Assembly: GCA_038045925.1 (NCBI GenBank)
Contig: JBBSXE010000052.1
Location: 1-35,149 of the forward strand
Origin: Nanobdellota archaeon
GTDB lineage: Archaea > Nanobdellota > Nanobdellia > SCGC-AAA011-G17 > UBA489
DNA: 35,149 nucleotides
Reading direction: 5' to 3'
Below are positions 4,350-32,600 of the stretch, piece after piece; position 1 is the first letter of the stretch, and each line of letters begins with the position of its first letter. The notes beneath the pieces were generated by a model. The model was not told the DNA's origin. It saw only the letters and a program-made list of their open reading frames with translations, and made no database searches. The position numbers and the translations under genes were made by a program.

Positions 4350-4919
4350 TTATGTCTTGCTCAGGATTTCTTCAATCTTGGTCATAAATGCATCCGCATC
4401 CTCTAATGCTGCTCTAGCCATTTCTTTTGTCAGCGACGGCGTTGCATCATATTGCGCAGTTTCTCTTTTTGTTTTTATCTGGATGAGCTTTGTGATGAAC
4501 TGCTCGCTCAGATCATAAGCTTTCGTGAGGCTGCTGATGTCTTTTTGTTCTAATGCAGAACTCTTGTTTTCATCTTTTTTCTCAGCGACATAATGGTATT
4601 CAAGCACAGTTATTGTTCCAGCATGGCTTTTTGATTTAAATCCAAACCTTGCAAGTGCCGCAAGAGCAGAGGTATACATTGCATAATAAGAAACAATAAT
4701 CACCCAATCATATGTTTCGAACGCAGAAGCAAGTAAAAGCAATTTTCTTGTATTCTCTTCGTCTGAAATCTTAAAAAGAATATTTGCAACTGCAAGATTT
4801 TTTCTCGATTTTGTTAAAAATGATTGTTCAAATCTCTTATGTTCTTCATGTTTGAAAAGTTGCTCTTTTTTCAGATATATTTCAATCTTCGCTTTTAGTA
4901 TTTCTCGTCTTTTTTTCAT
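4350..4919 (-). CDS. HEPN domain protein (HEPN/MNT module partner)
   Basis: DWVIIVSYYAMYTSALAALARFGFKSKSHAGTITVL fits the HEPN (PF05168-type) core. The ATG at 4919 overlaps the stop of the upstream nucleotidyltransferase gene as ATGA. Confidence 0.8.
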   Translation of the reverse strand: MKKRREILKAKIEIYLKKEQLFKHEEHKRFEQSFLTKSRKNLAVANILFKISDEENTRKLLLLASAFETYDWVIIVSYYAMYTSALAALARFGFKSKSHAGTITVLEYHYVAEKKDENKSSALEQKDISSLTKAYDLSEQFITKLIQIKTKRETAQYDATPSLTKEMARAALEDADAFMTKIEEILSKT

Positions 4920-5539
4920 GAGAGAATCCTCCAAAAAATTTCATGCCCATATAACGAAATGCCATCGTTTTTCACTTCTTTGCCGACATTTAATTCTTTT
5001 GAGCTCAGCATTTTTTTAAACTGATCAATATCTGTAATTAATGGGCTTATGTGAATATTGTAAGAGTATCGGTAGCTTGCACTTTCCATCTCTATTGCTT
5101 TCCGTAATGTTTTATCGTGGAGATTGCTGACAATAAATAAAAGATCAATATCGGAACGTTTGGTTGCTGTTCCTTTTGCATAGCTTCCAAAGAGAATAAT
5201 AGCATGAAGAGAAGAAATGTGTACTTCAACAAGTTTTGAGATCAGAGATTCAAGAATTGTTTTGAGTTTTTGATGCTTCTTATAGAGTTCATCTTTTCTC
5301 GCAAGATCAAAAGATGCAAGCAGGTGTCGCGTCTGTGGTTGGTTCAGGTTTAGTCTGCAGTATGTAGCATGCCCTATCCTCTCAATGCGGATAATGCCTT
5401 CCTTTTCCATTGCAGCAATATGATTGTATGCTGGTCGATAGCCGATAGAAAGCTCTTTTGAAATTCCTAAGATAGTTTTGCCTTTGTCTATTTCTTTTCT
5501 CATCAATCCAATGATCCGCAAAAGTGTCTGCTGTCGCAT
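4916..5539 (-). CDS. wHTH-fused minimal nucleotidyltransferase (MNT) of a HEPN/MNT toxin-antitoxin-type pair
   Basis: LFGSYAKGTATKRSDIDLLFIV matches the pol-beta NTase motif G-S-x9-11-D-x-D. The N-terminal roughly 70 aa (ISKELSIGYRPAYNHIAAMEKEGII) look like a winged helix. The first ATG is at 5539; the track start 5545 is TTG. Confidence 0.85.
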   Translation of the reverse strand: MRQQTLLRIIGLMRKEIDKGKTILGISKELSIGYRPAYNHIAAMEKEGIIRIERIGHATYCRLNLNQPQTRHLLASFDLARKDELYKKHQKLKTILESLISKLVEVHISSLHAIILFGSYAKGTATKRSDIDLLFIVSNLHDKTLRKAIEMESASYRYSYNIHISPLITDIDQFKKMLSSKELNVGKEVKNDGISLYGHEIFWRILS

Positions 5540-5545
5540 GTTCAA

Positions 5546-13054: not shown

Positions 13055-14122
13055 ATAAACTTTACTGAAAATACGTTCAGTAAAGAGGTGATAGTCATGA
13101 AAAAGAGGTGTTTTACATGGGAAAAATAGGTAAAAGATGGGGTAAAAAAGTTACATACATTCGAGACTGGGAAAAAAACCAATGAAGAGCTTGTTCTGCG
13201 AGGAGTTTATTACTTGGATTTTGATTGGATTATAAACTGGGACAAAGAGCTTGAAGAGATGAACACAGGGAAGGTGGGAGCACCTTACCAATCTCATCAA
13301 TCTTTAATACGATTGCAAGCGTTCTGGGCACAACTCTATAATTATCGGGCTGTGGAGGGAATAACACGCCAGGTTTGCGCTTTTGCACAAATTCCAGAAT
13401 ACAATGATTACACAACTATTTGGCGTCGTGTTACTGTATTCGATGAGCCTCTTCCAAAGCCGAAGAGAGACCATCTCAGCATCAACAGATGGCTCAGGAA
13501 TGAAAATGAATATGGGTGGAGAATATTTTGAGGAAAAATATGGTGATGGCAAAAAGAAATTCATTAAAGTTACGATCACCGCAGATCCATACGACAAAGA
13601 CTTGCTCAGAGTAGAAGTCGCCCTCGAGGGTGAGGGCGATTCTGAACCTGAAGTGGCAGAGAAACATATGAAAGAGTTAATTGACGAAGGATACAACATA
13701 AATGAGTTTTTCATGGATGGCGCTGGCGATACACACCACTTATTTGACTTCTGCGACCAGTATGGCATTGACCCAATCATTAAGCTACGGGAAAATGCTG
13801 TTGTTGATCCTTGGTGGAGGAGGATCATGGAGAAGAGGGATAGAAGTTGAAAAATATCGTAGATGGGGCTATGAAAAGTGGGCGAAAATAAAACATTATG
13901 GGCGACGATGGACCGGCACAGAAGGTATCTTTTCTGCAGTGAAACGGATTTTTAGCGAACGAGTTCGCTCAAAAAAGATTGAAAATATGTGCAAAGAGGT
14001 GAAGCGACGCTTCTGGGCATACGCAGTTCTTAGGAGATATGCCCAAGAAAAAGTGGCGGCGTAGAATTTTTCTAAGGAGTGATGTTCAATTTTATTTATG
14101 CAACACAGCAGTAAAAAGTTTG
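13055..14122 (+). mobile_element. Degenerate IS element (IS5/IS4-superfamily-like DDE transposase); boundaries approximate
   Basis: The candidate imperfect terminal inverted repeats are AAACTTTACTG (13057-13067) and CAGTAAAAAGTTT (14109-14121, reverse complement AAACTTTTTACTG). They flank the transposase reading frames. Confidence 0.5.
13117..14064 (+). pseudogene. DDE transposase gene interrupted by at least three frameshifts
   Basis: The pieces read MGKIGKRWGKKVTYIRDWEK, then TNEELVLRGVYYLDFDW...GAPYQ, then STDGSGMKMN...GEYFEEKYG...MDGAGDTHHLFDF...IIKLRENA, then YGRRWTGTEGIFSAVKRIFSE. They lie in different frames (track ORFs 13214.., 13383.., 13702..). The first shift coincides with the A7 run at 13173-13179. 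Confidence 0.7.
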
Positions 14123-14161
14123 ATTAATGCAACGATGTAGTGAATACTAAAACACCATAAT

Positions 14162-14172
14162 CTTTATATATG
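14162..14172 (+). promoter_or_regulatory. TATA box of the giant surface-protein gene
   Basis: CTTTATATATG lies about 52 nt upstream of the ATG at 14219, with GGGGG (14206-14210) as an SD-like element. This mRNA is leadered. Confidence 0.5.
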
Positions 14173-14218
14173 TTTAATCACTTTCGAGTTGTATCATGAC
14201 AGTTTGGGGGATATTGGT

Positions 14219-17200
14219 ATGCGTGTAAGAGCTTTGTTTTTACTAATAGGAAGCCTCTTTCTCCTCTTCGCAGGACTTGTTTTTTCCGCGCACCTCGCAA
14301 GCGCACAAGCAGTGATCAATGAAGTGCTCTATGCGGCGCCAGCTCCTCAAAAAGAAAATGAGCTCATCGAGCTTTTTCTGTTTGACCCTAATCTCAATAT
14401 CTCGAACTACACTCTTAAAATCGGAAACACTTTAGAAACATTGACTCCGGATGTTCTTGTATCATCCCCCTTTGTGTTGATCATCGCGGATACAAGCAAC
14501 ATTACTGCAGCAAACGCATCCATTTATCGTGTTAAAGGCGCGTTAGGCAACACTGGCATGAGTTCAACAACAGTCATTCAACTTATTTCAGATACAGGTA
14601 TACCTATTGATCTCTTGGACTTGAGTTTTTTTGCTCCAACGAAAACAAATTATTCTTTAGAACGATTTAATCCTAACAACTCCGCGTTTGCAGAAAGCCT
14701 TATTCAGGGAGGAACGCCGGGCTACCAAAATAGCGTCGCGGGAAATATTCCACCAATATTGAATCCTATCGGCGATCGAACACTTCTCGAAACACAATTC
14801 TTGACGATTCAACTGAATGCTTCAGATCCTGATAACGATCCTCTTCTGTTTGATACAAATGCAGCCGGAGTTCTTCCATCGCCATTTGCGTTTGATATAA
14901 ACACAGGTCTTTTCAGTTGGACACCAACCATTACAGACGCAGGAAATTATAGCATTACCTTTAATGTGACTGATGGCATTGATTGGGATTCGGAAACCAT
15001 AACCATTACTGTTCTCAACCTCAACAGAGCACCGTCGTTTTCTCCTTTAGGAAAGCAAAGCATCTTGGAAGATACAAATTTAACGATCAATCTCTCGCAG
15101 TACGCAACTGATCCTGATGGCGAGGCTCTTGCGTTTTATGCACTTTCTATAGATAATATTACCTTGGCTATTAATCAAACAACAAGCATTGCAACCCTTA
15201 TTCCTGACTCTAATTTTTTTGGCAGTCGTTCCGTCATTTTCATCGCGCAAGATCCTTTTTTTGCAACAGCAAGCAGCGTTTTATTTTTAAGCGTGACTTC
15301 TGTCAATGATATTCCGGAAATTCGCTCAACACCGAACTTGACCGTGCAGCAAGATAGTTTGTATGCGTACAACATGATCCTCTTTGATGGCGATAATGAT
15401 CCTTTAATCACGTCATTAGCAGTTGCGCCAGCAGGCATGGTTCTTTCTAACGCGGGAAATATTACTTGGACTCCGAACAGTTCGCAAGTTGCTCCAACGC
15501 CTGTCAGTATTGTCGTGGTCGATACAGCAAATGCTTCCGTCATGCAAAATTTTACGATTACGGTCTTGAATAAAAACGACGCTCCAAAAATCAATTCTAC
15601 GCCTGTCACCACAGCGACACAAGATACTCCGTATGTTTACCAAGTCACTGCGCACGATCCTGATCTCTCTTTTGGAGATACACTCATCTTTATCTTGAAG
15701 CAGGCGCCGCAATTTATGGCTATTGCTCCAACAACCGGCATTATTGCATGGGTTCCTCAATTTAATCAAGTAGGCCAACATCCTATCATTGTTGAAGTGC
15801 GTGACGCTGCTGGACTTACTGACTTACAAAGTTTCACGATTCAAGTAGCGAATGTCAATGATCCGCCAACACAACCAACATTGATCAGCCCTTTCAATGG
15901 CGCGCTGCTCCGGGACCCAACAGTTCTTTTACAGTGGAATCCTTCAACAGATCCTGATAACGATTCCGTCAGCTATTATGTTGTGACTGGAGAGCTCATT
16001 AATCAAGGACTGAACGCGACAAACGTTACGGTTATCCAAACAACAAATCTTCAACACACCATTACACTTGAAGACAATAAAACCTATGGATGGGGCATTA
16101 TCGCAACCGATGGTGTATTAAATGCGTCGAGCAATCTCTCTGTGTTCTTCACGAGTTTCTTTAATCCGCCAACGATTCAAGTTCTTGCTCCAAATACGTT
16201 GACTCCGAGTGTCCAGGAGAATGCAACGCTTCTCTTTGCTGTGAACGTCACTGACCCTGATGGAGACCCTGTTGTCAGCATTGCCTGGTATCTTGATACG
16301 CAACTACAAACCACCAGCAGTTCTTTTACCTATGCACCGACATTCGGCGACAGCGGCATACATAATGTGACCGTTGTTGCAACAGACAACACGAGCAGAA
16401 GCAGCTTTGTTTTCTTCGCTGTTACCGTTCTCGACACAAATAGAGCTCCAGATCTTGATCCTATTTCAAACCAATCTACGACACAGGGAATTCCTTTGAA
16501 GACCTCCATAACCGCATCAGATCTTGATCTTCCTTTTGGAGACCAATTGACGTACACGACAAATAATCCTCGATTCACTGTTACGAAGAACTCAGCAACA
16601 CAGGCAGACTTTTCTTTCACGCCAACAAACAACGAGGTTGGAACACAGCAAGTTATTGTTACGGTCACTGATACCGCAGGCGCAACAGATACAGAATCGT
16701 TCTGGCTCACTGTCGCAAACATCAATGATCCTCCAACCATCACCTCATCACCGCTGACGAGCGCAGTCATCAATATACCGTATATGTACGACCTCAAAGC
16801 AACTGATCCTGATCTGCAATTTGGAGACGCCTTAACATTTACATTTGTCACGGCACCACCTACTATGGTTCTCACAAAAATTGATACCGTTACGGGAAGA
16901 ATCATGTGGACTCCGAACGCATCTGAATTTGGCCAACACCAAGTGCTTGTAAAAGTGTCTGACAACGCAAACGCAACCGTTACGCAGCAATATCAAATTC
17001 AAGTGGCACAAGTCGGAAACGGCACGTTAGTCATTCTTGATCAGTTTTCCGCAACAAAGCCGACATTCGGGGATGATAACCAGCAAGCAAGCAATCCACG
17101 CAGTGATGAATCCAGTGAGTTCGATATTTTTGACGCCACTACTATTCGCATCCAAAATGCAGGCTCTTCAACGCTTTCAAATTTCACTCTTTCCGTCGCT

Positions 17201-18631
17201 CCATTGAGCGGTTTTTCGCTGAGTGACTTGAATATCTCTCTCCAGAGCACACCGACAGTTCTCGCGAAAGGGGCATCAGCGACAATCTCTCTTAAAGCGC
17301 GAATTCCCGAAACATTAGACGCCGTTGATCAAAATGATGATGCCGTTGCGCTTCCGGTTGCAGACATCACTGTTGAAGCACAAGATACCATTGGCGCGCC
17401 AATTCGGACAACGTTCCGCGCATTTATGCAGCGAGAAAATCAATTAGACCTCACAGACACAACTCTTTTTGTGAATGATAAGAGTAGCAAAAACGTTGAC
17501 GATAAAGACGATATCAAGGACATCAAACCCAAGGATCGTTTTGAATTGGAGATTACTGCGGAAAATACCTATGATCAGTCAACAAATCTTGACATGAAAG
17601 ATGTAGGAGTACGCATCGATTGCGACGACCAGAATGATTTTGATTTCGATGATAAAACAGAAGATATCGGCGATATCGGCACAGAAGATGAAGAAACGAC
17701 AACCTTCACATTTGCTGTTGAGGACGACGCGGCAGACAGTGACACAAAATGCACGCTTGTTATTGAGGGAGATGATGAAAACAGAGCACGGCATGCAGAA
17801 TCTCTCGAATTTACCCTCAGCGTTCAGCGAGAAAGCCACGATCTCCAGATTGAAGGGCTCGACGCCACACCCAGCAGCATACTCTGTGAAACGCAGAACA
17901 TCAACATTAGAGCAGACATTCGTAATCTTGGAAAAACAGATGAAAGCGATGCTGTTGTTGAGATTATCAGCAAAGATCTCAGCTATCAGCTACGAACAAA
18001 TTCATTTGAGCTGGATGAAGACAATGTTCAAGATGTGAATTTCCTTATTCCTGTTCCACCATCATTAACCACGGGAGAAAAAGCAATACAGATTAAAACA
18101 TTCTATGACAATACCAAAGAAAGCAACAGTGAAACTATCTCTGTCGATAATCAGTGTGGTGCGCGGGCGACAATTCCGACGCGACAGCAACGAGGAGCAG
18201 CAGATGAAGATGTGGTTATCACTCTCGGACAATCTTCATTGGACGCGGCGCAAGGAAGCACTGTCAGTATTCCTGTGAAGGTCGCAAACACAGGTTCAGC
18301 AACAAAAGAATTTATAATCGCGTTCACTAATATTGAGGAATTTGCAGAGCCATCGCCAACGAAAAAAATTCTGCTTAAGCCTGGACAAACATCTACTCTT
18401 TACATGAACTTGAAGATCAAGCCGACCGCGCCTGTGAAAAAACAAAGCGCGACAATTACGGTGGCAGCTGATGGAAAATCTCTTGCCGCAGACACGATCG
18501 CGCTTGAAGTTACAGGAAAAAATCAAGGTGATGGCGCAGTACGAACAACCTTATTCTGGATTATTATTAATCTCTTACTTGTGATTATTGTCCTGTTCTT
18601 GATTGATAAATTCTTTATCCGAAAATACTGA
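14219..18631 (+). CDS. Giant cell-surface protein: signal peptide, lamin-tail domain (LTD), about 8 cadherin/He_PIG/PKD-like Ig repeats, acidic beta-sandwich plus CARDB-like module, C-terminal TM anchor
   Basis: MRVRALFLLIGSLFLLFAGLVFSAHLASAQ is the signal peptide. AVINEVLY...NELIELF...LERFNP...GTPGYQN fits the LTD pattern. Repeats are separated by cadherin-like linkers N(D/R)(A/P/I)P (NRAP, NDIP, NDAP, NDPP) and contain DPD...GD motifs. QRESHDLQIEGLDATPSS...IRNLGKTDE is CARDB-like. The C-terminus is LFWIIINLLLVIIVLFLIDKFFIRKY. The track start 14189 is TTG, so the ATG at 14219 is preferred. Confidence 0.9.
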   Translation: MRVRALFLLIGSLFLLFAGLVFSAHLASAQAVINEVLYAAPAPQKENELIELFLFDPNLNISNYTLKIGNTLETLTPDVLVSSPFVLIIADTSNITAANASIYRVKGALGNTGMSSTTVIQLISDTGIPIDLLDLSFFAPTKTNYSLERFNPNNSAFAESLIQGGTPGYQNSVAGNIPPILNPIGDRTLLETQFLTIQLNASDPDNDPLLFDTNAAGVLPSPFAFDINTGLFSWTPTITDAGNYSITFNVTDGIDWDSETITITVLNLNRAPSFSPLGKQSILEDTNLTINLSQYATDPDGEALAFYALSIDNITLAINQTTSIATLIPDSNFFGSRSVIFIAQDPFFATASSVLFLSVTSVNDIPEIRSTPNLTVQQDSLYAYNMILFDGDNDPLITSLAVAPAGMVLSNAGNITWTPNSSQVAPTPVSIVVVDTANASVMQNFTITVLNKNDAPKINSTPVTTATQDTPYVYQVTAHDPDLSFGDTLIFILKQAPQFMAIAPTTGIIAWVPQFNQVGQHPIIVEVRDAAGLTDLQSFTIQVANVNDPPTQPTLISPFNGALLRDPTVLLQWNPSTDPDNDSVSYYVVTGELINQGLNATNVTVIQTTNLQHTITLEDNKTYGWGIIATDGVLNASSNLSVFFTSFFNPPTIQVLAPNTLTPSVQENATLLFAVNVTDPDGDPVVSIAWYLDTQLQTTSSSFTYAPTFGDSGIHNVTVVATDNTSRSSFVFFAVTVLDTNRAPDLDPISNQSTTQGIPLKTSITASDLDLPFGDQLTYTTNNPRFTVTKNSATQADFSFTPTNNEVGTQQVIVTVTDTAGATDTESFWLTVANINDPPTITSSPLTSAVINIPYMYDLKATDPDLQFGDALTFTFVTAPPTMVLTKIDTVTGRIMWTPNASEFGQHQVLVKVSDNANATVTQQYQIQVAQVGNGTLVILDQFSATKPTFGDDNQQASNPRSDESSEFDIFDATTIRIQNAGSSTLSNFTLSVAPLSGFSLSDLNISLQSTPTVLAKGASATISLKARIPETLDAVDQNDDAVALPVADITVEAQDTIGAPIRTTFRAFMQRENQLDLTDTTLFVNDKSSKNVDDKDDIKDIKPKDRFELEITAENTYDQSTNLDMKDVGVRIDCDDQNDFDFDDKTEDIGDIGTEDEETTTFTFAVEDDAADSDTKCTLVIEGDDENRARHAESLEFTLSVQRESHDLQIEGLDATPSSILCETQNINIRADIRNLGKTDESDAVVEIISKDLSYQLRTNSFELDEDNVQDVNFLIPVPPSLTTGEKAIQIKTFYDNTKESNSETISVDNQCGARATIPTRQQRGAADEDVVITLGQSSLDAAQGSTVSIPVKVANTGSATKEFIIAFTNIEEFAEPSPTKKILLKPGQTSTLYMNLKIKPTAPVKKQSATITVAADGKSLAADTIALEVTGKNQGDGAVRTTLFWIIINLLLVIIVLFLIDKFFIRKY
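17637..17698 (+). repeat. Copy 1 of a 62-nt tract identical between two surface-protein paralogs
   Basis: ATTTTGATTTCGATGATAAAACAGAAGATATCGGCGATATCGGCACAGAAGATGAAGAAACG, encoding FDFDDKTEDIGDIGTEDEET. It contains the tandem GATATCGGC x2. Confidence 0.9.
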
Positions 18632-18648
18632 GAATATACAAACCAAAA

Positions 18649-18662
18649 GATTTATATATATC
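18649..18662 (+). promoter_or_regulatory. TATA box of the second surface-protein gene
   Basis: GATTTATATATATC lies about 56 nt upstream of the ATG at 18712. AGGGGT at 18696-18701 is SD-like. Confidence 0.5.
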
Positions 18663-18711
18663 TGTTATTATTTTTGAGTAACAATTAAATCTCTTAGGGG
18701 TACAGCAATCA

Positions 18712-20334
18712 ATGCATAACAAAAAAATAATCCTTCTTGGAGCACTTTTCCTATTCTTGAGTATTGCAACTGCGTATGCGCAAACAACATCACTTACTAT
18801 TGTTGAAACAACCCTGCAGATAGATCTTGCGCAAGGTCAAACAACAACCGCTTCGTTTACGGTCCAAAATACCGGAACAACCTCAATCAGCTCTGTATTC
18901 GATACGAGCCAATTAGACCTTACTGATAGCAATGGGAAAACGATTACGCTTACATTTTCGCCTACATCACCTCAGATTACTCCTAATCAAAGCGCGGTGA
19001 TCACTATAACGCTCAAGGCAGACTCCCAAATCAGTTTTGAGCAATTTGGCGGCATCCTAACGGTGAAGGATAATACTACTGGAAGCACGGCACAAGACAC
19101 TCTCCAACTTGATATTGAGGTTGAACCTGATGTTTGTGATTTTGGTCAAGTTGGTTCAGCTTTACAAATTGACATTAAAGAGCCTGAAACGTCAGACGAA
19201 TTCAAGCCCGGTGATACTGTTTCTATTGAAGTCGAAGTAGAAAACCAAGGCCAGAATGATATCCGTGTCCAAGTGGAAGCATTTCTTTTTCATGATAACC
19301 AAAATATTGCAGATACCTCCTCAACAACTCGGCGCATTGATGAAACAAGCGATGAATCTTTTACTTTAAAACTTATGATTCCCGTTGATGAGGATGACCT
19401 TGAAGAAGATGATGAGTTAACTTTAATTGTCAAGGCATTTGATGACGAAGATGAACAATTAAATTGCGTGCAGGCAAAGCAAAAAGTCAATATAGAATTG
19501 GAAGATGATGATATTGTGATTGACGAAGCAGAATCGCAGCTTTTTCCAAGTGTCGCCGCATGCGGAGATGTTCTTTCAGCCGCAGTTAAAATCGTGAATA
19601 TCGGCAGCGACGATAATGAGAATGTTGTGATTTCTGTTCAAAATCGAGAACTTGGCATCAATGAACGTTCAGAATCATTTACTCTGGAAAGCTTTGATTC
19701 AAAAGAAGAAAATACTGCAATCCGCCACTTTCAGCTTACTATCTCTGCTACAGCACAACAAAAATCCTATCCCTTGCAGATGGATGTGAAATTTGATGGC
19801 GGTTCAGATTCTTACACTATTCCTCTTAATATCATTTCTTGCGATGGACAGCAACCAACAGGAAATCTACAAGAGATTATTATAAAGCCTTTAGAAAAGT
19901 CCTTTGCTGGACAGCGCGGGAAAGTCCTCAGCGTTCCTGTTGAAATTGTTAATAATCAGGCAAAAAAAGCAATCTTGATCATGAGCACTGCAAATATTGA
20001 AGATTTTGCCACTGCGACAACGAAAACTATCACGATCAATCCTGGCGCAAAGACAACAGTTTTTTTCGATTTGATTCTCCATGAACAAACAACGCCTGGT
20101 CTTTATGGCGCAACTTTTCTCCTGAAGGAAGGCGCACAGGTTATTGCGTCAACAGACGTCCAGATCATGGTTGATGAAACAGGAATTACAGTGCAGACGA
20201 AAAAACAGCCAATGTTTCCTGTGATTGGCGATGTACCGACAAGCCTGTTGGTTATTGGAAATATTATTGTCTTTATTTTTGTCCTTTTGGCAATTCGTTT
20301 TGCGCTTGTAACTTGGAAAAGAAGCAAGATATAG
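18712..20334 (+). CDS. Cell-surface protein paralog (signal peptide, acidic beta-sandwich and CARDB-like domains, C-terminal TM anchor)
   Basis: MHNKKIILLGALFLFLSIATAYAQ is the signal peptide. There is an acidic block, DEDDLEEDDELTLIVKAFDDEDEQ. IVNIGSDDNENVVISV is CARDB-like. IEDFATATTKTITINPGAKTTVFFDL parallels the FAEPS...LKPGQ segment of the neighbouring genes. The C-terminal TM is LLVIGNIIVFIFVLLAIRFALV followed by KRSKI. Confidence 0.85.
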   Translation: MHNKKIILLGALFLFLSIATAYAQTTSLTIVETTLQIDLAQGQTTTASFTVQNTGTTSISSVFDTSQLDLTDSNGKTITLTFSPTSPQITPNQSAVITITLKADSQISFEQFGGILTVKDNTTGSTAQDTLQLDIEVEPDVCDFGQVGSALQIDIKEPETSDEFKPGDTVSIEVEVENQGQNDIRVQVEAFLFHDNQNIADTSSTTRRIDETSDESFTLKLMIPVDEDDLEEDDELTLIVKAFDDEDEQLNCVQAKQKVNIELEDDDIVIDEAESQLFPSVAACGDVLSAAVKIVNIGSDDNENVVISVQNRELGINERSESFTLESFDSKEENTAIRHFQLTISATAQQKSYPLQMDVKFDGGSDSYTIPLNIISCDGQQPTGNLQEIIIKPLEKSFAGQRGKVLSVPVEIVNNQAKKAILIMSTANIEDFATATTKTITINPGAKTTVFFDLILHEQTTPGLYGATFLLKEGAQVIASTDVQIMVDETGITVQTKKQPMFPVIGDVPTSLLVIGNIIVFIFVLLAIRFALVTWKRSKI

Positions 20335-20372
20335 ACGCTGAATCATCTATATCCAATCATACCAACCACAAC

Positions 20373-20385
20373 CTTTATATATAAG
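20373..20385 (+). promoter_or_regulatory. TATA box of the third surface-protein gene
   Basis: CTTTATATATAAG lies about 61 nt upstream of the ATG at 20440. GGGGG at 20427-20431 is SD-like. Confidence 0.5.
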
Positions 20386-20439
20386 TTGCAACTTCACAAT
20401 AGCAACACAATACAATCGATTGATACGGGGGTTTACAGC

Positions 20440-22224
20440 ATGAAACAATTGATGATATGGAGTTTACTGATCATTCTCTTAGTAGGATTTTCAATGGCTG
20501 GTGTTGAAGCGCAATTAACTGCGAAAAACACTTTCGATAAGAACAATCCAACGCACGGAAGCGCGACACAAGAAGCAAGCAATCCGAAGCATGATGACAC
20601 TATCAAGAAAGATATTTTTGTTACGAGCACCATTACGATAAAAAATAGCGATCTTACCAATGCAATTATTATTGACAGCATTGGCGTGAATCCTGCGTCT
20701 GGTTTTTCAGCAACTGATTTGCAGCTGACTCTTGTCGGCGGACCAACAACCATTCCAAAAAATGGCGAAGCGAGCATACAGATCAAGGCACGCATTCCAG
20801 AAACATTAGACGCTGTTGACAGCGCATTCGACGCGGTCGCTTTCCTTATCGCGAATGTTGATCTCTTTGAAAACACTGTTCAGAAAGGCACTGTACAAAT
20901 TTGGATGCAGCGGGAAAATGGACTTTCCATTAAAGATATTAAGGCGATTATCAATGGAAAAGGAAGTCAGAGCATTGATCCAGGAGATGATCTTGAAAAC
21001 ATCAAACCTGGAGACAAAATTGAGCTTGAAGTTGGAGTAGAGAATAATTTTGATGATGAGACAAACCTTGACGCAGAAGATGTCAAACTCAAGATCCAGT
21101 GTGATAATGAAGACAATTTTGATTTCGATGATAAAACAGAAGATATCGGCGATATCGGCACAGAAGATGAAGAAACGGAAAGAATCACGTTCAGCGTTCA
21201 AGACGATGCTGAGGATGAAGACACCACGTGTGATATTTCAGCAGAAGGCAAAGATGAAAACGGCGCTCGACATGGTGAACTGCTTGCTTTTGATGTTCAA
21301 ATCCAGCGAAAAAGCCATGACATCATCATTAAATCCGTGAATGCGAATCCAACATCCTTAAGCTGCGACGATACGACGATCAATCTTCGTGTTGAATACA
21401 TGAACTTGGGACGATCAGATGAAGACCGCGTTGCGATTGAAGCGACCTCCAGAATCTTGAACTACCAAGAACGTATTGCAGGTTTAGAGTTGGATGAAAA
21501 TGACCGTGATGAGAAAATCTTTTTGGTTCCTGTTAATCCACGAACGATCAGCCAAGGTCCATTTATCTTCCAGCTGCAGACATTCTATGATAACACAAAA
21601 CTCAGTGAAACTGCGACATTGACGATGGACAACCTCTGTTCAGAAGGGCAACCCGTCAACACAGGAAAACCAGGAACAGGCAACAACGAGCCTCGTGGCG
21701 TAGGTAACGCTCTTGTTGTTGGCGCTGAAAAAATAACCTTAAGCAAAGACAGCCTTGCAAGCGTTGCTGTAAAGGTTGTCAACAAAGAGGAAGACAGCGT
21801 TGAATACACTGTTAGCCTCGACAATATTGATGACTTTGCAGAGCCTTCCTCAAGCAAGAAAGTATTCTTGAATGCGGGACAGGAAAGCACGGTGTTCTTG
21901 AACTTGAAGGCAAAGAGCAATCTCGCCCCAGGTTTATACAGCGGAACTGTTGTCTTGGAAGATGCTGGCGGCAACACGATTGAAACACGGACGTTTACTG
22001 TTGAAGCTGGCGGCAAAAGTGGTACAAGCACTGGCACAACAACGAACACATTTGCCTCTTTATTCGGCGGCGAATCGAACTCCAAAATCTTTTGGATCAT
22101 TGGAGACGTCATCTTAGTGATCATCGCGATCTTTTTCATTAAGCTGATTTTCAGCGGCGGAAAAAGAAAAAAAGACAAGAAGATGGCAGATTTTGAAGCT
22201 GAATCAACCAAGAGAAAACGATAA
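20440..22224 (+). CDS. Cell-surface protein, paralog of the C-terminal roughly 520 aa of the giant protein
   Basis: MKQLMIWSLLIILLVGFSMAGVEAQ is the signal peptide. The protein is colinear with residues of 14219..18631: QEASNPKHDD / QQASNPRSDE, IKARIPETLDAVD in both, MQRENGL / MQRENQL, FDFDDKTEDIGDIGTEDEET identical, TFYDNTK in both, FAEPS(S/P). The TM anchor is IFWIIGDVILVIIAIFFIKLIF followed by a basic tail. The track start 20386 is TTG, so the ATG at 20440 is preferred. Confidence 0.85.
   Translation: MKQLMIWSLLIILLVGFSMAGVEAQLTAKNTFDKNNPTHGSATQEASNPKHDDTIKKDIFVTSTITIKNSDLTNAIIIDSIGVNPASGFSATDLQLTLVGGPTTIPKNGEASIQIKARIPETLDAVDSAFDAVAFLIANVDLFENTVQKGTVQIWMQRENGLSIKDIKAIINGKGSQSIDPGDDLENIKPGDKIELEVGVENNFDDETNLDAEDVKLKIQCDNEDNFDFDDKTEDIGDIGTEDEETERITFSVQDDAEDEDTTCDISAEGKDENGARHGELLAFDVQIQRKSHDIIIKSVNANPTSLSCDDTTINLRVEYMNLGRSDEDRVAIEATSRILNYQERIAGLELDENDRDEKIFLVPVNPRTISQGPFIFQLQTFYDNTKLSETATLTMDNLCSEGQPVNTGKPGTGNNEPRGVGNALVVGAEKITLSKDSLASVAVKVVNKEEDSVEYTVSLDNIDDFAEPSSSKKVFLNAGQESTVFLNLKAKSNLAPGLYSGTVVLEDAGGNTIETRTFTVEAGGKSGTSTGTTTNTFASLFGGESNSKIFWIIGDVILVIIAIFFIKLIFSGGKRKKDKKMADFEAESTKRKR
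21116..21177 (+). repeat. Copy 2 of the 62-nt identical tract
   Basis: Base-for-base identical to 17637..17698, while flanking codons differ at many positions. Confidence 0.9.
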
Positions 22225-22267: not shown

Positions 22268-23041
22268 ATGAAACCATCTGCAAATTATGTTCTGCTTGAA
22301 GCGAAGCAACATGGAAGTTACCTTTATCCAGATATTTATGTTTGCTTAGACCGTCTCGCGTGTACTCCTGCGCTACGTCGTTCAGGATTGCTATTTGACC
22401 TATTGGGAGAAGAAGAGGAGATAGAATTAGGCAACTTTGCCTCAGACTTGAATGGAAAAGGTTTCATAGGTAATATTGATTATGGTCTTGCAATGAACTT
22501 AGTTCAATCTTTGCCAGGGCATTCTTTTCCGTTAAATTTACGTCTCGCTATCGATTATTCAAAAATAATACGTAGTGGTGCAAAAGGAAAGAATGTCTTT
22601 GACGCTGCAGGAAATCGCATTTCACGACAGCGCCTTAGTGATGCTTGGAAAGACCTTACTCACAATACTCCATTACAGGAACCCCGTACAGAATGGATTA
22701 ATGGGGTTTATGAAAAAGATGCTCCTGGTAAAATGCACGTTCACTATCTCTTACCAAAATTCAATGGAGATCTTGTAAATATCATTGAACCTCTTGAAGC
22801 ATGTTTAATGACTGATAGAATGATAGATTTTAATGATTGGATAAATAATGCTACGTCGCAAGGCCTACCGCAACGAAACGTGCGCGGAGGAACTTCTTTC
22901 TACATCTTTCCTCACCATCAGTCTGTCGCGAGGTTTGGCGCTTATACAACTAAAGGCTTAGCTCATGTAGGCCTCAACTGTATAAGCCATCAAACAGGTT
23001 ATGCACTCGGGGTACGTGTCGCAAAAATAAAAGTTGAATAA
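22268..23041 (+). CDS. Hypothetical cytoplasmic protein (257 aa), no recognisable domain
   Basis: Clean ORF with TGAGGA 8 nt before the ATG and T-tract terminators after the stop (23055-23085). No signal peptide or TM helix. Confidence 0.6.
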   Translation: MKPSANYVLLEAKQHGSYLYPDIYVCLDRLACTPALRRSGLLFDLLGEEEEIELGNFASDLNGKGFIGNIDYGLAMNLVQSLPGHSFPLNLRLAIDYSKIIRSGAKGKNVFDAAGNRISRQRLSDAWKDLTHNTPLQEPRTEWINGVYEKDAPGKMHVHYLLPKFNGDLVNIIEPLEACLMTDRMIDFNDWINNATSQGLPQRNVRGGTSFYIFPHHQSVARFGAYTTKGLAHVGLNCISHQTGYALGVRVAKIKVE

Positions 23042-23634: not shown

Positions 23635-23880
23635 CAGTATGATACCTATTACGTAATAAAGAACATATGGGAGAAAAATGCGAAATGTGGCTTAAAGCAA
23701 TCGAATATTTTCCGAGAAGGATGACTATTTTTACGCCATTCAGATAGATTTTCGAAGACATTACGGATGTTGTAGAAGCACCGCATTGTCTTGAAAAAAA
23801 GTTTTATTTTTTTATTACGCCATTTATCTTATCGCAGTTTGCAAAAGCATTTAAAAGCAAACCATTGTCTCTTTTCCAGC

Positions 23881-24756
23881 ATGTTTGAATCCCTTCGCCA
23901 AGAATTAGAACATTGTCCTTTGCTTACGAACAAAGAAACGATCATCACGCATTTGAGCCATCTTTTGAAAAAAGCGATAGGAAAGTATGAATGCCCAGGC
24001 ATTGCGTTCTCTGGAGGCCTCGATTCAAGTGTATTAGCTTTGCTGGCGAAAGATCCGATGCTGTACACGATTGCTTTGGAAAATTCTTCCGATGTTATCT
24101 GGTCATTAGATGTAGCAAAAAAATTAGGACTTAGGATTACAACAAAAATTTTATCGTTGGACGAAGCTGAACAGATTATCAAAAAAGTTGTTCACCTGCT
24201 GCAGAGCACTGACGTCACGCATGTCGGCATTGGATGCGTTGTCTATGCAGTCTTGGAGATGGCAAAAAAAGACGGCGTTACCCTTGTTCTTGGAGGGTTG
24301 GGAGCTGAAGAAATTTTTGGAGGCTATCTTCGCCATATTGATTATGGAAAAGACCTTGAAAATATCCACGAACGCCTCTGGGATGGCTTACGAGATATGG
24401 AGACTCGCGATTTTGCCCGTGATCTGCCCATTGCAAAGCACTTTAACATTGAGTTGCAAGCTCCGTTTCTTGATGAGTCTCTCGTCAGATATGCGATGCA
24501 AATCCACCCCAGCTTGAAAATCAACCATGAACGACGGAAAATTATTCTCCAGGAAACTGCTTTTCAGCTTGGTTTGCCACGAGAAGTTGCGTTTCGCAAG
24601 AAAATCGCGGCGCAATACAGCAGCAAGTTTGACCGTGCTATCCATCGTTTAGCAAAGAGAAATGGCTTCAGATTAAAGAAAGACTATCTGCAGTCGCTGT
24701 TAAAAAAGAAAAAAGAAAAAAACTCCAAAACTGAGGAGTCGATCGCTAAAGCGTGA
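23881..24756 (+). CDS. Asparagine-synthetase-C-terminal-domain-like PP-loop ATP pyrophosphatase, lacking the N-terminal glutaminase domain
   Basis: GIAFSGGLDSSVLALLA is the SGGxDS PP-loop, LGGLGAEEIFGGY is the AsnB motif G-x-G-A-D-E-x-F-G-G-Y, and APFLDESLVRYAM...LQETAFQLGLPREVAFRKKIAAQ matches the AsnB C-terminal region. The ATG at 23881 has CATTTAAAAGC about 28 nt upstream; the track start 23791 is TTG. Confidence 0.8.
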   Translation: MFESLRQELEHCPLLTNKETIITHLSHLLKKAIGKYECPGIAFSGGLDSSVLALLAKDPMLYTIALENSSDVIWSLDVAKKLGLRITTKILSLDEAEQIIKKVVHLLQSTDVTHVGIGCVVYAVLEMAKKDGVTLVLGGLGAEEIFGGYLRHIDYGKDLENIHERLWDGLRDMETRDFARDLPIAKHFNIELQAPFLDESLVRYAMQIHPSLKINHERRKIILQETAFQLGLPREVAFRKKIAAQYSSKFDRAIHRLAKRNGFRLKKDYLQSLLKKKKEKNSKTEESIAKA

Positions 24757-26119: not shown

Positions 26120-26192
26120 AGCGCCGGGCAGGATTTGAACCTGCGAATGACCGCTCTGCAGGCGATAGTGTTAACCGCTTCACCACCGGCGC
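26120..26192 (-). tRNA. tRNA-Cys (GCA)
   Basis: The reverse complement GCGCCGGTGGTGAAGCGGTTAACACTATCGCCTGCAGAGCGGTCATTCGCAGGTTCAAATCCTGCCCGGCGCT folds as a cloverleaf. It has a 7-bp acceptor stem, anticodon loop CTGCAGA, T arm GCAGG-TTCAAAT-CCTGC and discriminator U73 (a CysRS identity element). There is no encoded CCA. TTATATAAA lies about 28 nt upstream. Confidence 0.9.
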
Positions 26193-26218: not shown

Positions 26219-26938
26219 TTATATAAGTTTCTCCCTTTCTAAAAGAGAAATACGAGGTATATAATAGCCTAATTTTTTCCATAGTAAATATTTCGTGAGA
26301 CTATTTCTATTGCTAAACCCTATTTCCCTCATCCATTTTTCTAATTTATGCTCGCCGCTGAGATAGATTTTAAAATCCCCATACTTCGTTTTCATAATTT
26401 TTGCCTCGAATTTATTTTTATTTAATAGATCAAATACCTGATAAGCGAGTAACTGGCTCGATGTTCGAAGCTCTATTCGCGGATATGTAGGATAATTATT
26501 TTCTTTGCTTTTCGAGAAATAAAGAGAGCCATCAGATTCGAAAATACCTCTAAGAACATGTTTTGCAATTTCCCAGGAAATAGTGAATCTTTTTGGTATC
26601 TTAACAATAAAGGTTTTATTTCCATAATCGAGATCAGCATCTTCCACAAGGAAAGAAATAAATGCTTTGCTATAAATAAGCAATTCCAAACCAAAGCCTT
26701 TTTTATGTTTTCTCGATTGTATTACTGGTTCTTTTCCAGTCAATTTGAAAATAATATTTTTTAATCTCATAAAATACTCGATGTCTTGAGAAACATCTCC
26801 AACAACTATAAGCCTATAAAACTTATCTTGATAGCGATAAAGGATATTTCCATCTCCTATGATAACCCCAACAAGTTCTGCAAATTCAGGCATGAATGCG
26901 TAAGCAAGCCTCTTAATTTCATGTTGCGAAAACTGCAT
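26219..26938 (-). CDS. Free-standing double-motif LAGLIDADG homing-endonuclease-like protein
   Basis: There are two LAGLIDADG-type motifs, FAELVGVIIGDGNI and VLRGIFESDGSLYF, about 100 aa apart. TATTTAAAGA lies about 27 nt upstream of the ATG at 26938. The stop codon lies inside the TATA box of tRNA-Cys. Confidence 0.8.
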   Translation of the reverse strand: MQFSQHEIKRLAYAFMPEFAELVGVIIGDGNILYRYQDKFYRLIVVGDVSQDIEYFMRLKNIIFKLTGKEPVIQSRKHKKGFGLELLIYSKAFISFLVEDADLDYGNKTFIVKIPKRFTISWEIAKHVLRGIFESDGSLYFSKSKENNYPTYPRIELRTSSQLLAYQVFDLLNKNKFEAKIMKTKYGDFKIYLSGEHKLEKWMREIGFSNRNSLTKYLLWKKLGYYIPRISLLEREKLI

Positions 26939-29234: not shown

Positions 29235-29321
29235 CGGGCCCGAAGAGATTTGAACTCTCGACCCCTAGCTTGCTTCATGATTTAGAAGGCTAGTGCTCTA
29301 TCCAGGCTGAGCTACGGACCC
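29235..29321 (-). tRNA. tRNA-Arg (UCU) with a 12-nt intron at the canonical 37/38 position
   Basis: The reverse complement is GGGTCCGTAGCTCAGCCTGGATAGAGCACTAGCCTTCTA[AATCATGAAGCA]AGCTAGGGGTCGAGAGTTCAAATCTCTTCGGGCCCG. The cloverleaf closes only if about 12 nt (plus-strand 29271-29282) are removed. CTTC of the anticodon loop pairs with GAAG of the intron, giving a relaxed bulge-helix-bulge. TTAAATAA lies about 27 nt upstream. Confidence 0.85.
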
Positions 29322-29462
29322 ATGGCATTTTTCCCTTCTATTTGCTTATTTAAGCTTTTGCAGAAAACGTTTGATTATCTAAAGAGCGTTCTTTAACGTC
29401 TAAATGAAGCGCATCTATTGGTTACAACAAGTTTTAAATAATCTCTTTATTCTTTGCAAAGG

Positions 29463-32400
29463 ATGGATTTCAAATCGCTTGAAAAAAAATGGCAGCAGCG
29501 CTGGAAACAAGCAAAGGTTTTTACTGCTTCAGCGGCTGGTAAAAAAAAGTGGTTTAATTTAGAGATGTTCCCGTACCCCTCAAGCACGGGGTTGCATATG
29601 GGACACGCCTTTAACTATGTTCTCGGCGACATTTACGCGCGCTTCAAACGGATGCATGGCTTCTCCGTTCTCTATCCGATGGGCTACGACGCCTTTGGCC
29701 TGCCTGCAGAAAATGCTGCCATCAAGGCAAACAGCCATCCTAAACCATACACTGAACAAGCGATCAAGAATTTTATTGTGCAGCAACAAGCGCTCGGTTT
29801 AAGCTATGACTGGGAACGGATAATCACCACCTGCGATCCAGATTATTATCGCTGGAATCAGCTCCTCTTCCTTCATTTTTTTAAAAAAGGCCTGGTCTAT
29901 AAAAAAAAAGCAAGCGTCAACTGGTGCTCGCAATGCACAACGGTGTTGGCAAATGAGCAAGTGCATGGAGGAGCATGCTGGCGCCATCAAGAGACTCTCG
30001 TTGAAATCAAGCAATTAGAACAATGGTTTATCAAAACAACTGTGTATGCAGACGAGCTGTTGGACACCATTGATGATTTAGACTGGCCAGAACGGATTAA
30101 GCAGATGCAGAAAAACTGGATTGGTAAAAGTGAAGGTGCCGAGATTGTGTTCGACGTTGCGACTGAGTCTAATTTCGTTCTTCTTCATGGTTATACAGGC
30201 AGCGCGGAAAAAAATTTCTTTCCTTGGCTTAAAAAAGAACTCGAACGCAGTGGTCATGCAGTTTTCGCTCCAAATTTACCAAATACCAGCAATCCAAATA
30301 TTTCAGAACAAGTAGGCTACGTACTAAAAAACTACACGTTCGACGAACATACTGTTCTTCTTGGCCATAGCTTAGGAAGTGTTGTTGCGTTGAAAATTGT
30401 AGAGCAATTGAAAAACCCCATAAAAAAATTAGTTCTCGCGGCAGGATTTGCGCAGCCAAAATTCAAAGATAAAGAACGACCGTTTGAAACAACGTTTGAC
30501 TGGCAGTTCGATTTCAACAACATAAAAAAGAATGTGAAACATATCGTAATCTTGCGAGATATAAAAGATTCAGCGGTTCCTGCAGAAAAAGCCGACTATC
30601 TCAAAGAGAAGATTGGCGGCGAGATTATTGATTTCGTTGCGGAAAGAAGTCATATTTGCGGAGAACAGGAGCCAGAAGTGCTAAACACTTGCTTGGAGCG
30701 ATGGCATGTTTTTACCACGCGCCCAGATACATTATTCGGTGTCACATTTTTAGTTGTCGCAGCACAGCATCCAGAACTCATGTCCTTAGTGACTCCACAG
30801 CAAAAAAATGCAGTAAACTCCTTTCTGAAAAAGCTCAACACAACAAAGCAGGAAGATCTCGATAAAATGGAAAAAGAAGGTGTCTTTATCGGATCCTATG
30901 CAATTCATCCACTCACAGAAGAAAAAATTCCGATTTATACAGGAAATTTTGTCGTTGTGGACTATGGTTCTGGCATAGTGATGGCAGTACCTGCGCATGA
31001 TCAGCGTGATTTTGAGTTCGCGAAAAAATATAGCATTCCGATAAAGATTGTGATCCAACCAAAAGAAAAAAAGCTTGATGTGAACTATTTGCAAGAAGCA
31101 TATACGCACGAGGGCATATTGGTCAACTCACGTCAATTCAATGATCTTCCAACCGCGGCAGCAAAGGAAAAGATTGTACACTTCCTTACGCAACAAAAAA
31201 AAGGAAAAAAAACAACACAATACAAACTCCGTGATTGGCTCGTGTCTCGTCAGCGCTATTGGGGAACGCCCATTCCGTTCATTCATTGCAGCCATTGCGG
31301 CCTTGTTCCTGTGCCTGAAAAAGATCTTCCCGTCCTGCTTCCGGAAAATGTTACATTTGGCAAAGGCAATCCTCTGGAGACAAATAAAGAGTTTGTTCAC
31401 ACGCATTGTCCAACCTGTAAAAAGCCAGCAAAACGAGAAACAGATACCATGGACACGTTTTTTGATTCATCGTGGTATTTTCTCCGCTTTACAGATCCAA
31501 CGAATGGAAAACAACCTTTTGAAAAAAAGAAAGCTGATTCTTGGATGCCTGTTGATTTCTATGTTGGCGGAGCAGAACATGCCTGTGGTCATTTAATTTA
31601 TGCGCGCTTCTTTACCAAAGTTTTGCGCGATCTTGGTCTTGTCACGTGCGATGAACCCTTCAAAAAACTTTTCAACCAAGGGATGCTGCACGGAGAAGAT
31701 GGTCATGTGATGTCAAAATCCCGCGGTAATGTCATTAATCCGTTAGAGGTGATTGAACAATATGGTGCAGATACGCTACGGATGTTTTTAGTTTCAGTTG
31801 CTTCTGCAGACAAAGATATGATCTGGAGTACTGAAGGCATTGTGAGCGTGCATAAAGTGCTGCAAAAACTTATTACACTCTTTGCAACGATGACTATAAC
31901 CACGTCAAGCAAGCGACTCGAAAGCAAACTTCATCAAACCATCAAAGAAGTAACACAGTATACTGAAGCGATTAAGTATAATCTTGCCGTGATCAGCTTG
32001 CGCACCTTTATCGATGATCTTGGAAAGGAAAAAACAATTGCGAAGCATGACGCAGCAGCGTTTTTGAAACTCCTACATCCTTTTTGTCCGCACATCACTG
32101 AAGAACTATGGGAAAAGCTGAAAAATAAACAAGTGATAACATTAGAATCGTGGCCAGTACATCAAGAGAAAAAAATAAATCAAAAAATTGATGCAGCAGA
32201 GAAATTTATTCAGGCAACAACTGCAGACATCGCGAATATCCTCAATCTCATCAAGATCAAACCACAAACAATTACGTTGTTCATTGCAGAATCATGGAAA
32301 TATCCGCTCTTCAAAAAACTCCACACCGAAAAAACCAGAGATTTCTCAGCACTCATGAAAAAATTTGCAGACAAAGAAAAAGGTCAGGACATTGCAAAAA

Positions 32401-32600
32401 TTGTTCAGCAATTCATGAAGGGCGCATTAAAAACAGATATTGTGATCTCACTAGAAGAGGAAGCAGATGCTCTCAAAGAACAGAAATTGTTATTAGAAAA
32501 GCAGTTTGGCGCAAAAATAGAAATAATACATGCAGAAACGAGCAAAGAGCAAAAAGCAAAGCAAGCTATTCCTGGAAAGGTTGCAATCATGGTTTCATAA
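29463..32600 (+). CDS. leuS: Leucyl-tRNA synthetase, bacterial type, carrying an in-frame alpha/beta-hydrolase insertion
   Basis: FPYPSSTGLHMGH is the HIGH motif, PMGYDAFGLPAENAA and NWIGKSEG are LeuRS motifs, TTRPDTLFG and VPAHDQRDFEFAKKY belong to the CP1 editing domain, RDWLVSRQRYWGTPIP is present, VMSKSRGN is the KMSKS motif, and the C-terminus is IPGKVAIMV. The ATG at 29463 has TTTTAAATAA about 28 nt upstream. Confidence 0.95.
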   Translation: MDFKSLEKKWQQRWKQAKVFTASAAGKKKWFNLEMFPYPSSTGLHMGHAFNYVLGDIYARFKRMHGFSVLYPMGYDAFGLPAENAAIKANSHPKPYTEQAIKNFIVQQQALGLSYDWERIITTCDPDYYRWNQLLFLHFFKKGLVYKKKASVNWCSQCTTVLANEQVHGGACWRHQETLVEIKQLEQWFIKTTVYADELLDTIDDLDWPERIKQMQKNWIGKSEGAEIVFDVATESNFVLLHGYTGSAEKNFFPWLKKELERSGHAVFAPNLPNTSNPNISEQVGYVLKNYTFDEHTVLLGHSLGSVVALKIVEQLKNPIKKLVLAAGFAQPKFKDKERPFETTFDWQFDFNNIKKNVKHIVILRDIKDSAVPAEKADYLKEKIGGEIIDFVAERSHICGEQEPEVLNTCLERWHVFTTRPDTLFGVTFLVVAAQHPELMSLVTPQQKNAVNSFLKKLNTTKQEDLDKMEKEGVFIGSYAIHPLTEEKIPIYTGNFVVVDYGSGIVMAVPAHDQRDFEFAKKYSIPIKIVIQPKEKKLDVNYLQEAYTHEGILVNSRQFNDLPTAAAKEKIVHFLTQQKKGKKTTQYKLRDWLVSRQRYWGTPIPFIHCSHCGLVPVPEKDLPVLLPENVTFGKGNPLETNKEFVHTHCPTCKKPAKRETDTMDTFFDSSWYFLRFTDPTNGKQPFEKKKADSWMPVDFYVGGAEHACGHLIYARFFTKVLRDLGLVTCDEPFKKLFNQGMLHGEDGHVMSKSRGNVINPLEVIEQYGADTLRMFLVSVASADKDMIWSTEGIVSVHKVLQKLITLFATMTITTSSKRLESKLHQTIKEVTQYTEAIKYNLAVISLRTFIDDLGKEKTIAKHDAAAFLKLLHPFCPHITEELWEKLKNKQVITLESWPVHQEKKINQKIDAAEKFIQATTADIANILNLIKIKPQTITLFIAESWKYPLFKKLHTEKTRDFSALMKKFADKEKGQDIAKIVQQFMKGALKTDIVISLEEEADALKEQKLLLEKQFGAKIEIIHAETSKEQKAKQAIPGKVAIMVS

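Follow-up and report, generated by a model that had tools for sequence, protein, structure and literature searches.

A comparable system for sorting proteins to an archaeal cell surface is that of Haloferax volcanii, in which the archaeosortase ArtA cleaves and lipid-anchors the surface layer (S-layer) glycoprotein (PMC6098224). A 2018 review places archaeosortases only in a subset of the Euryarchaeota and describes the S-layers of DPANN archaea as unanalysed (PMC6098224). A second relevant system is curated by NCBIfam as a sortase, pacearchaeosortase (NF033505), together with its substrates (NF033506, "PACE-CTERM-PROT, putative S-layer protein"); no paper on either "pacearchaeosortase" or "PACE-CTERM" was found in the literature. 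For DPANN archaea, contact with host cells is a necessity, yet their envelopes have hardly been studied. The locus described here consists of three consecutive + strand open reading frames (ORFs), designated G1, G2, and G3, on contig JBBSXE010000052.1 of a Nanobdellota archaeon, the whole 35-kb length of which (35,149 nucleotides) is referred to as the window. They encode secreted or anchored, acidic β-sandwich proteins and are core genes in Woesearchaeota. We consider it probable, with real room for doubt, that the trio represents sortase-served envelope or S-layer subunits plus an adhesin variant, belonging to the PACE-CTERM family, in a groundwater archaeon of the Woesearchaeota (GTDB Nanoarchaeia, DPANN).

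G1 (14219–18631) encodes 1470 residues from its ATG and comprises a signal peptide (residues 1–30), an LTD-like domain (residues 31–175), eight immunoglobulin (Ig)-like domains (residues 176–932), a module of four domains, D1–D4 (residues 933–1435), and a tail (residues 1436–1470). G2 (18712–20334; 540 residues) has an N-terminal CARDB domain (residues 27–104) and, at its C terminus, a signal that is degenerate (SLLVIGN…WKRSKI). G3 (20440–22224; 594 residues) has a signal peptide and a strand with the sequence QEASNPxHD, followed by D1 (residues 59–159), the acidic D2 (residues 162–289), the CARDB-like D3 (residues 295–399), the FixG_C-like D4 (residues 424–524), a PACE-CTERM-type tail, and a predicted cytoplasmic KKMADFEAE tail. 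The copy of the shared module in G1 (17015–18523, + strand) shares 40% identity with G3 across ~550 residues (G1 residues 943–1466 against G3 residues 33–572, E = 5e-117); G2 is 23% identical to G3 across ~400 residues (E = 4e-18) and 23% identical to G1 (E = 2e-11). These similarities identify the three as true paralogs, as the first-pass annotation had proposed for three consecutive genes at these positions. Its description of the products as secreted and acidic with a single C-terminal transmembrane (TM) segment is also borne out, each having an N-terminal hydrophobic signal-peptide-like segment, one C-terminal TM segment, and an isoelectric point of 4.1–4.5. Each contains exactly four cysteines at equivalent positions, which likely form two disulfides.

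The three genes appear to be transcribed from separate promoters, again in agreement with the first-pass annotation. The sequence CCAnAAnnTTTATATAT and a G-rich run are found 50–65 nucleotides before the ATG of G1, G2, and G3 alike, and the window contains 11 copies of TTTATATA as compared with 1.5 expected, a count that was reached by none of 100 shuffles. Candidate elements similar to the archaeal TFB recognition element and TATA box (BRE/TATA-like), assigned by reading the sequence and from the enrichment of TTTATATA, are at 14155–14175 for G1 (CCATAATCTTTATATATG), 18643–18663 for G2 (CCAAAAGATTTATATATA), and 20366–20386 for G3 (CCACAACCTTTATATATA), all on the + strand. Bacterial sigma-70 promoters were rejected as candidates, the 15 matches in the window being at chance level (17.2 expected). 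A DDE transposase that has decayed and now spans three frames is located directly upstream of G1 (13214–14064, + strand) and might suggest that the trio consists of chance ORFs, pseudogenes, or an artefact of assembly. The probability of this is negligible, and it is already refuted by the long intact ORFs with full-length orthologs in many metagenome-assembled genomes (MAGs), by the conservation of motifs and cysteines, and by a second sample, the 0.2 µm fraction of Hainich groundwater from well H32 (ENA ERZ1292636), which independently gave an identical arrangement in a 28-kb assembly (L036, in which the transposase remnant is also present); the locus is therefore not an artefact.

The first-pass annotation found no nameable family for the shared module, but G2 passes the NF033506 model with 164.3 bits (cutoff 110, E = 4.7e-48), its residues 70–529 aligning with model positions 144–623 of 627; the family is curated though experimentally uncharacterised. 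Other G3-like proteins score 56–90 bits, below the cutoff. Homologs of G2 are recorded by NCBI as "putative S-layer protein [Nanoarchaeota archaeon]," and all 31 genome loci with relatives of the trio are from Candidatus Woesearchaeota, Nanoarchaeota, or Nanoarchaeia MAGs, the closest being UBA489, so that both the surface location and the archaeal source proposed for the trio are supported. By homology, the three proteins are members either of the PACE-CTERM putative S-layer family or of sister subfamilies not yet recognised as such.

G3 and G1 share with this family a homologous ectodomain and a C-terminal tail composed of FWIIGD, a TM helix, and basic residues. Two full members of NF033506, P0097 and P0168 (259 and 224 bits), both have the C-terminal sequence …FWIIGDIILIVIAIFFVKLIFTGGKKK, which is essentially the tail of G3, and the G3 sequence SKIFWIIGDVILVIIAIFFIKLIFSGGKRKK matches both. 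The G3 signal as a whole (ESNSKIFWIIGDVILVIIAIFFIKLIFSGGKRK; 22072–22170, + strand) is near-identical to their tails and to most tails in the related loci, and the conserved pattern is [ST][KR][VI]FWII[GA]D[IV]ILV..AIFF.[KR]LIF followed by a basic cluster. The tail of G1 (…TTLFWIIINLLLVIIVLFLIDKFFIRKY; 18524–18628, + strand) is a variant, FWIIINLLLVIIVLFLIDKFFIRKY (FWIIIN…DKFFIRKY), of the same type as that of an orthologous 1471-residue protein in related locus L001; it ends 8 residues past the helix, consistent with a tripartite sorting signal. The tail of G2 is degenerate (SLLVIGNIIVFIFVLLAIRFALVTWKRSKI), and G2-type tails in many relatives are degenerate or generic. In the family proteins of most related loci the tail is almost letter-identical, although the ectodomains are merely 25–45% identical, and a regular expression for the tail found no match in the other ORFs of these loci. 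The helix and basic tail are thus not the generic anchor that was initially described but a signal that is preserved nearly to the letter and that NF033506 members also carry. The initial statement that the trio has no PGF-CTERM or archaeosortase signal is correct in its first part, there being no PGF motif in any of the three tails and no PGF-CTERM or ArtA-related NCBIfam match among the three proteins, but G3 and G1 carry a PACE-CTERM-type tail, and the second part is wrong in spirit because tails of the NF033506 type are genomically linked to pacearchaeosortase in relatives.

The evidence for this linkage is as follows. In L001, a 195-residue protein encoded at 1390–1977, 2 kb upstream of the G1 ortholog, matches NF033505 with 115.8 bits (cutoff 80). 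Of 20 distinct loci with enough flanking sequence, 11 have a sortase homolog encoded 1–8 kb upstream of the family genes, as do 9 of 11 loci within the clade that has both G2 and G3. The Cys, Arg, and His residues are invariant in the sortases of the related loci, corresponding to the triad of the exosortase family to which ArtA belongs (PMC6098224). We propose, by analogy with PGF-CTERM and ArtA in Haloferax, that the FWII[GA][DN] sequence, TM helix, and basic tail of G3 and G1 act as a recognition signal for a pacearchaeosortase. This enzyme, encoded just upstream in most close relatives, would in the present organism be encoded elsewhere in the genome; it would cleave the tails of G3 and G1 and probably transfer the proteins to a lipid anchor. 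G2 may remain anchored by its TM segment because its tail is degenerate. G2 and G3 would be the main envelope or S-layer subunits, whereas G1 would set its LTD-like and eight Ig-like domains atop the same membrane-proximal module. Consensus promoters, core synteny, an acidic string of Ig-like domains, and the NCBIfam name lend the S-layer reading indirect support. The trio resembles the Haloferax S-layer glycoprotein in being acidic, Sec-exported, and destined for the surface, and the motif, TM helix, and basic residues at its C termini are putative counterparts of the tripartite signal of that protein (PMC6098224). It differs in that the signature lacks PGF and falls within the first part of the TM helix, the ectodomain has no sequence relationship, the module is poor in sequons, and the lineage is DPANN.

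An AlphaFold2 model of G3 (predicted local distance difference test score, pLDDT, 79) has four β-sandwich domains connected by linkers and a C-terminal helix. In an alignment of 19 G3 orthologs the sequences QEASNPxHD, RIPExLDAVD, MQRENxL, DFDDK..DIGD, GxDxNGARHG, RESHDI, NLGRSxED, TFYDN, FAE, and NPGQxST are invariant and four cysteines are conserved; the profile of the G3 family matches P0037, an 80%-type ortholog of G1, with a value of 1e-149. An exhaustive profile search placed 3126 representatives in the family at E ≤ 1e-3, or 615 at the stricter limit of 1e-30. The family includes many proteins of 460–500 residues that contain D1–D3 and have unrelated TM anchors. The CARDB domain (PF07705, cutoff 22.7 bits) that had been described as common to all three proteins is above threshold in the N-terminal domain of G2 (27.7 bits), below it in G1 (19.3 bits, located in D4), and unmatched in G3. 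The domain initially named after its FAEPS sequence is present as D4 and resembles FixG_C at a sub-threshold level. D2 is very acidic, with 39 Asp and Glu residues in 120 residues of G1, including DFDDKTEDIGDIGTEDEE. N-x-S/T sequons are depleted 5-fold in the G3 family (23 observed, 119 expected) and 2.3-fold in the G2 family (44 observed, 100 expected), suggesting that the module is tightly packed or membrane-proximal. Stalks of the G1 type are enriched in them: G1 has about 2-fold more than expected (35 in the whole protein as compared with 18.7), 33 of the 35 being within residues 31–940, and P0037 has 34 as compared with 13.5 expected.

The Foldseek comparison with the Protein Data Bank (PDB), run with the G3 model, gave only generic strings of multi-Ig, MG, and ASH domains among the 50 top matches listed, including HYDIN, α2-macroglobulin, PorU, integrins, and cadherins, all with template modelling scores below 0.3. 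Such matches, together with the extreme acidity of D2 and a scarcity of sequons that is consistent with a place beneath an outer canopy, could be taken to indicate that the proteins are non-structural components of the surface or pseudo-periplasm, either cation-binding or buffering scaffolds or protective decoys acting through D2, whether or not they are processed by a sortase. This appears improbable, since the proteins have no thioester, bait region, or enzymatic domain and the family occurs throughout the lineage in a conserved gene order; moreover, acidic, cation-dependent strings of Ig-like domains are typical of archaeal S-layer proteins. A role resembling α2-macroglobulin or a protease was rejected on the same grounds, there being no thioester, bait region, or catalytic domain.

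The additional domains of G1 precede the module. The eight Ig-like domains of the stalk (14744–17014, + strand; 27 sequons) are separated by N-[DR]-x-P linkers. When the whole protein was compared with Pfam, it matched Big_9 (seven stretches), He_PIG (five), Cadherin_5, and PKD. Cutting the stalk at the linkers gave eight segments of ~95 residues that were scored singly, and seven of them (segments 1–4 and 6–8) are above the gathering cutoffs of He_PIG (PF05345), Big_9 (PF17963), or PKD (PF00801): Big_9 passes in all seven (24.6–37 bits), He_PIG has 34–49 bits in segments 1, 3, 4, and 8, and PKD has 25.9 bits in segment 6. Segment 5 (15863–16171) has no Pfam match. The estimate of about eight Ig-like repeats in the first-pass annotation therefore stands. 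Its comparison with cadherins holds loosely, for the N-D-x-P linkers and for DPD motifs that may bind Ca2+, but not for the domains themselves, as classical cadherin (PF00028) has no match in G1 and Cadherin_5 is below its cutoff in every segment (best 24.6 bits, cutoff 26.5), passing only as a score summed over the whole protein (57.6 bits).

The domain at the N terminus of G1 (14309–14743, + strand), which had been designated an LTD, is LTD-like by transitive homology only, because the match is in the L001 ortholog and not in G1. Residues 31–175 of G1 and the corresponding region of P0037 have no match with LTD (PF00932) in Pfam even at E ≤ 10, but the orthologous domain from L001 scores 34.7 bits (cutoff 34.3) over profile positions 6–106 of 109 and is 34% identical to the G1 domain (86 bits). 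BLASTP found no similarity between the latter and the LTD of P0041, a large homolog search seeded with it returned nothing, and a PDB profile search with its alignment (A2) matched the first Ig domain only. The AlphaFold2 model of residues 1–272, made from two sequences, has a pLDDT of 39 and is unusable for a fold search. G1 is comparable to the giant Ig-repeat adhesins of bacteria and archaea in its seven Pfam-positive repeats, its N-D-x-P linkers and DPD motifs, and the LTD of its ortholog; it differs from them in that its stalk is fused to the envelope module of the lineage and a sorting-type tail and in having no classical cadherin match. From these domains, a putative function in host attachment is plausible. 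The sequon-rich stalk would co-assemble with the envelope subunits, or be anchored like them, and would reach out past them; binding to a host cell or to a surface is a plausible purpose.

A number of results weigh against the assignment of the trio to sortase-served envelope subunits. Neither G3 nor the C-terminal module of G1 matches NF033506 at E ≤ 0.1, and the "S-layer" label of this NCBIfam family is itself a prediction. Searches with tblastn and blastp found no pacearchaeosortase in the window, and the 28-kb second assembly lacks one as well. When the G3 family alignment was used as a profile against the PDB, nothing matched at E ≤ 1, and no solved S-layer protein is among the 50 top Foldseek matches listed for G3. 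The depletion of sequons in the module is unlike the characterised archaeal S-layer proteins, which are heavily N-glycosylated. G3 continues for ~17 residues past the basic cluster with a conserved ADFEAE motif, which is atypical for sortase signals. This is part of a conserved segment of ~17–25 residues, KKxADYEAE…KKRRK (22171–22221 in the window), that follows the basic cluster in G3-type proteins. The extension (K-K-x-A-D-[YF]-E-[AP]…, then rich in Lys and Arg) is confined to the G3-type proteins of the clade with both G2 and G3 and is lacking in single-gene relatives. Such conservation in a predicted cytoplasmic segment is unexpected for a tail that is simply cleaved off and discarded, suggesting that G3 may keep its TM helix and tail and that these may have a function.

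The missing sortase and the extension of G3 could also be expected of plain type I membrane adhesins that form a host-attachment apparatus, as the first-pass annotation had suggested, and are held by a permanent TM anchor with neither sortase processing nor a lattice; the adhesin-type LTD-like and Ig-like domains of G1, the degenerate or generic tails of G2-type proteins, and the unrelated TM anchors of the 460–500-residue members are likewise compatible with this. Conservation of the tail would then reflect contacts between helices or with a partner of the tail, for example in oligomerisation or through binding of a cytoplasmic partner by ADYEAE. We regard this explanation as unlikely. It does not readily account for a TM helix that is conserved letter by letter across such divergent ectodomains, for the recurrent linkage of the FWIIGD tail in relatives with a pacearchaeosortase whose catalytic triad is intact, or for the curation of sortase and substrate by NCBIfam as one system. 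In addition, G2 and G3 have no recognisable ligand-binding adhesin domains and are core genes, syntenic beside housekeeping genes.

The trio extends a system already flagged by NCBI curators and is not new in kind; what is added is the lineage-specific triplication and the adhesin fusion. As compared with the NF033506/NF033505 system, in which G2 passes the cutoff and relatives of the trio encode the sortase next door, G3 and G1 are below the family model, a single ancestral gene has been triplicated, G3 has acquired the conserved cytoplasmic tail, G1 is fused to LTD-like and eight Ig-like domains, and the window has no sortase. The other instructive comparison is with SlaA and SlaB of the Sulfolobales. 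G2 and G3 resemble them as a conserved pair of adjacent envelope genes, and resemble SlaB as subunits rich in β-sandwiches that are held by a C-terminal TM segment (PMC6098224), but they are paralogs of one another, both have a C-terminal hydrophobic tail, and there is no sequence match or top-ranking fold match. By this analogy, a two-component lattice of G2 and G3 can be hypothesised. In a fuller version of this scheme, which we put forward tentatively and consider doubtful, G2 and G3 would form the two-component S-layer of one Woesearchaeota clade; an archaeosortase specific to DPANN would process G3 and G1 only and attach them to lipid; the sequon-free module of G1 would fit into the lattice and hold a glycosylated LTD-Ig stalk there as a host-attachment organelle; and a neighbouring AsnS-like gene product and the ADYEAE tail would be unrecognised parts of the sorting or assembly machinery. 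In a published metatranscriptome of Woesearchaeota, "S-layer protein genes" are among the ten most highly expressed, and these could not be tied to the trio family. The locus brings together a very large surface family lacking Pfam assignments, a dedicated sortase, a precise and testable sorting motif, and an adhesin fusion on the same module. It thus offers concrete targets for metaproteomics, glycoproteomics, cryo-electron tomography, and heterologous sortase assays, and a well-defined entry to DPANN envelope biology.

Relatives keep these genes in a conserved order, which supports the interpretation given in the first-pass annotation. In the window the neighbours of the trio encode G6PD, DnaK, an AsnS-like protein, LeuRS, and MscS. 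The conserved order is sortase (−), HAMP-DUF835 (+), a gap, G2, G3, the AsnS-like gene, a gap, and LeuRS, and, as judged from this order, G2, G3, and the AsnS-like gene are the conserved core of the locus. Distant Nanoarchaeia have a single G2-like gene for a protein of 630–700 residues followed by the AsnS-like gene, which shows that G2 and G3 arose by duplication of one ancestral gene. Fusions of the G1 type are found in the window and in related loci L001/L004, L003, and L034; in the distant locus L037 a separate giant protein with LTD, Ig, module, and TM regions adjoins a short family member. The AsnS-like protein (23791–24756, + strand) is a PP-loop protein without a glutaminase domain (Pfam Asn_synthase, 3e-32, and NCBIfam matches). 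Of the 34 related loci that were fetched (L001–L034), 19 encode a homolog of it 0–2 kb downstream of a gene of the G3 or G2 type, a position that is kept even in the distant single-gene relatives. It is weakly similar to the amidotransferase of the XrtA/PEP-CTERM system (TIGR03108; E = 1.7e-10, far below the cutoff). A functional tie to the sorting system is possible.

The pacearchaeosortase gene is almost always divergently paired with one for a membrane protein of ~530 residues containing 4HB_MCP/HAMP and DUF835 domains (L001:1390–3595, with equivalents in L002, L006, L007, L010, L012, L018, and L019), which could be a sensor or regulator tied to the sorting system. The HAMP-DUF835 gene was not found in the window by tblastn or blastp. 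The transposase remnant upstream of G1 occupies the place that this gene and the pacearchaeosortase have in relatives, suggesting that a rearrangement mediated by an insertion sequence parted substrates and sortase. An ORF of 257 residues (22268–23041, + strand) separates G3 from the AsnS-like gene. It has no Pfam or NCBIfam match and no homolog in the 34 related loci, but the second assembly also contains it; apparently it was inserted, in this lineage, into a gene order that is otherwise conserved.

Several other features of the window lie outside the trio. An ORF pair on the − strand with an overlap of ~19 nucleotides encodes a HEPN protein (4350–4934) and a nucleotidyltransferase (4916–5545) and, from its domains, resembles a toxin-antitoxin system of the HEPN/MNT type. 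A tRNA-Cys gene (26120–26192, − strand) adjoins an ORF with a LAGLIDADG domain (26219–26938, − strand). At 29235–29321 (− strand), Rfam identifies an 87-nucleotide tRNA (54.4 bits) that was missed by ARAGORN and is probably an intron-containing archaeal tRNA. LeuRS (29454–32600, + strand; 1048 residues) has an insertion of ~175 residues (about 30159–30683, residues 236–410) that follows the catalytic N-terminal half and precedes the CP1 editing domain. The insertion matches Pfam Ser_hydrolase/Abhydrolase_1, as an α/β serine hydrolase with the nucleophile elbow GHSLGS, and is found at the same position in the second assembly and in 2 of ~25 related Woesearchaeota (L023, 64% identity; L017, 49% identity).

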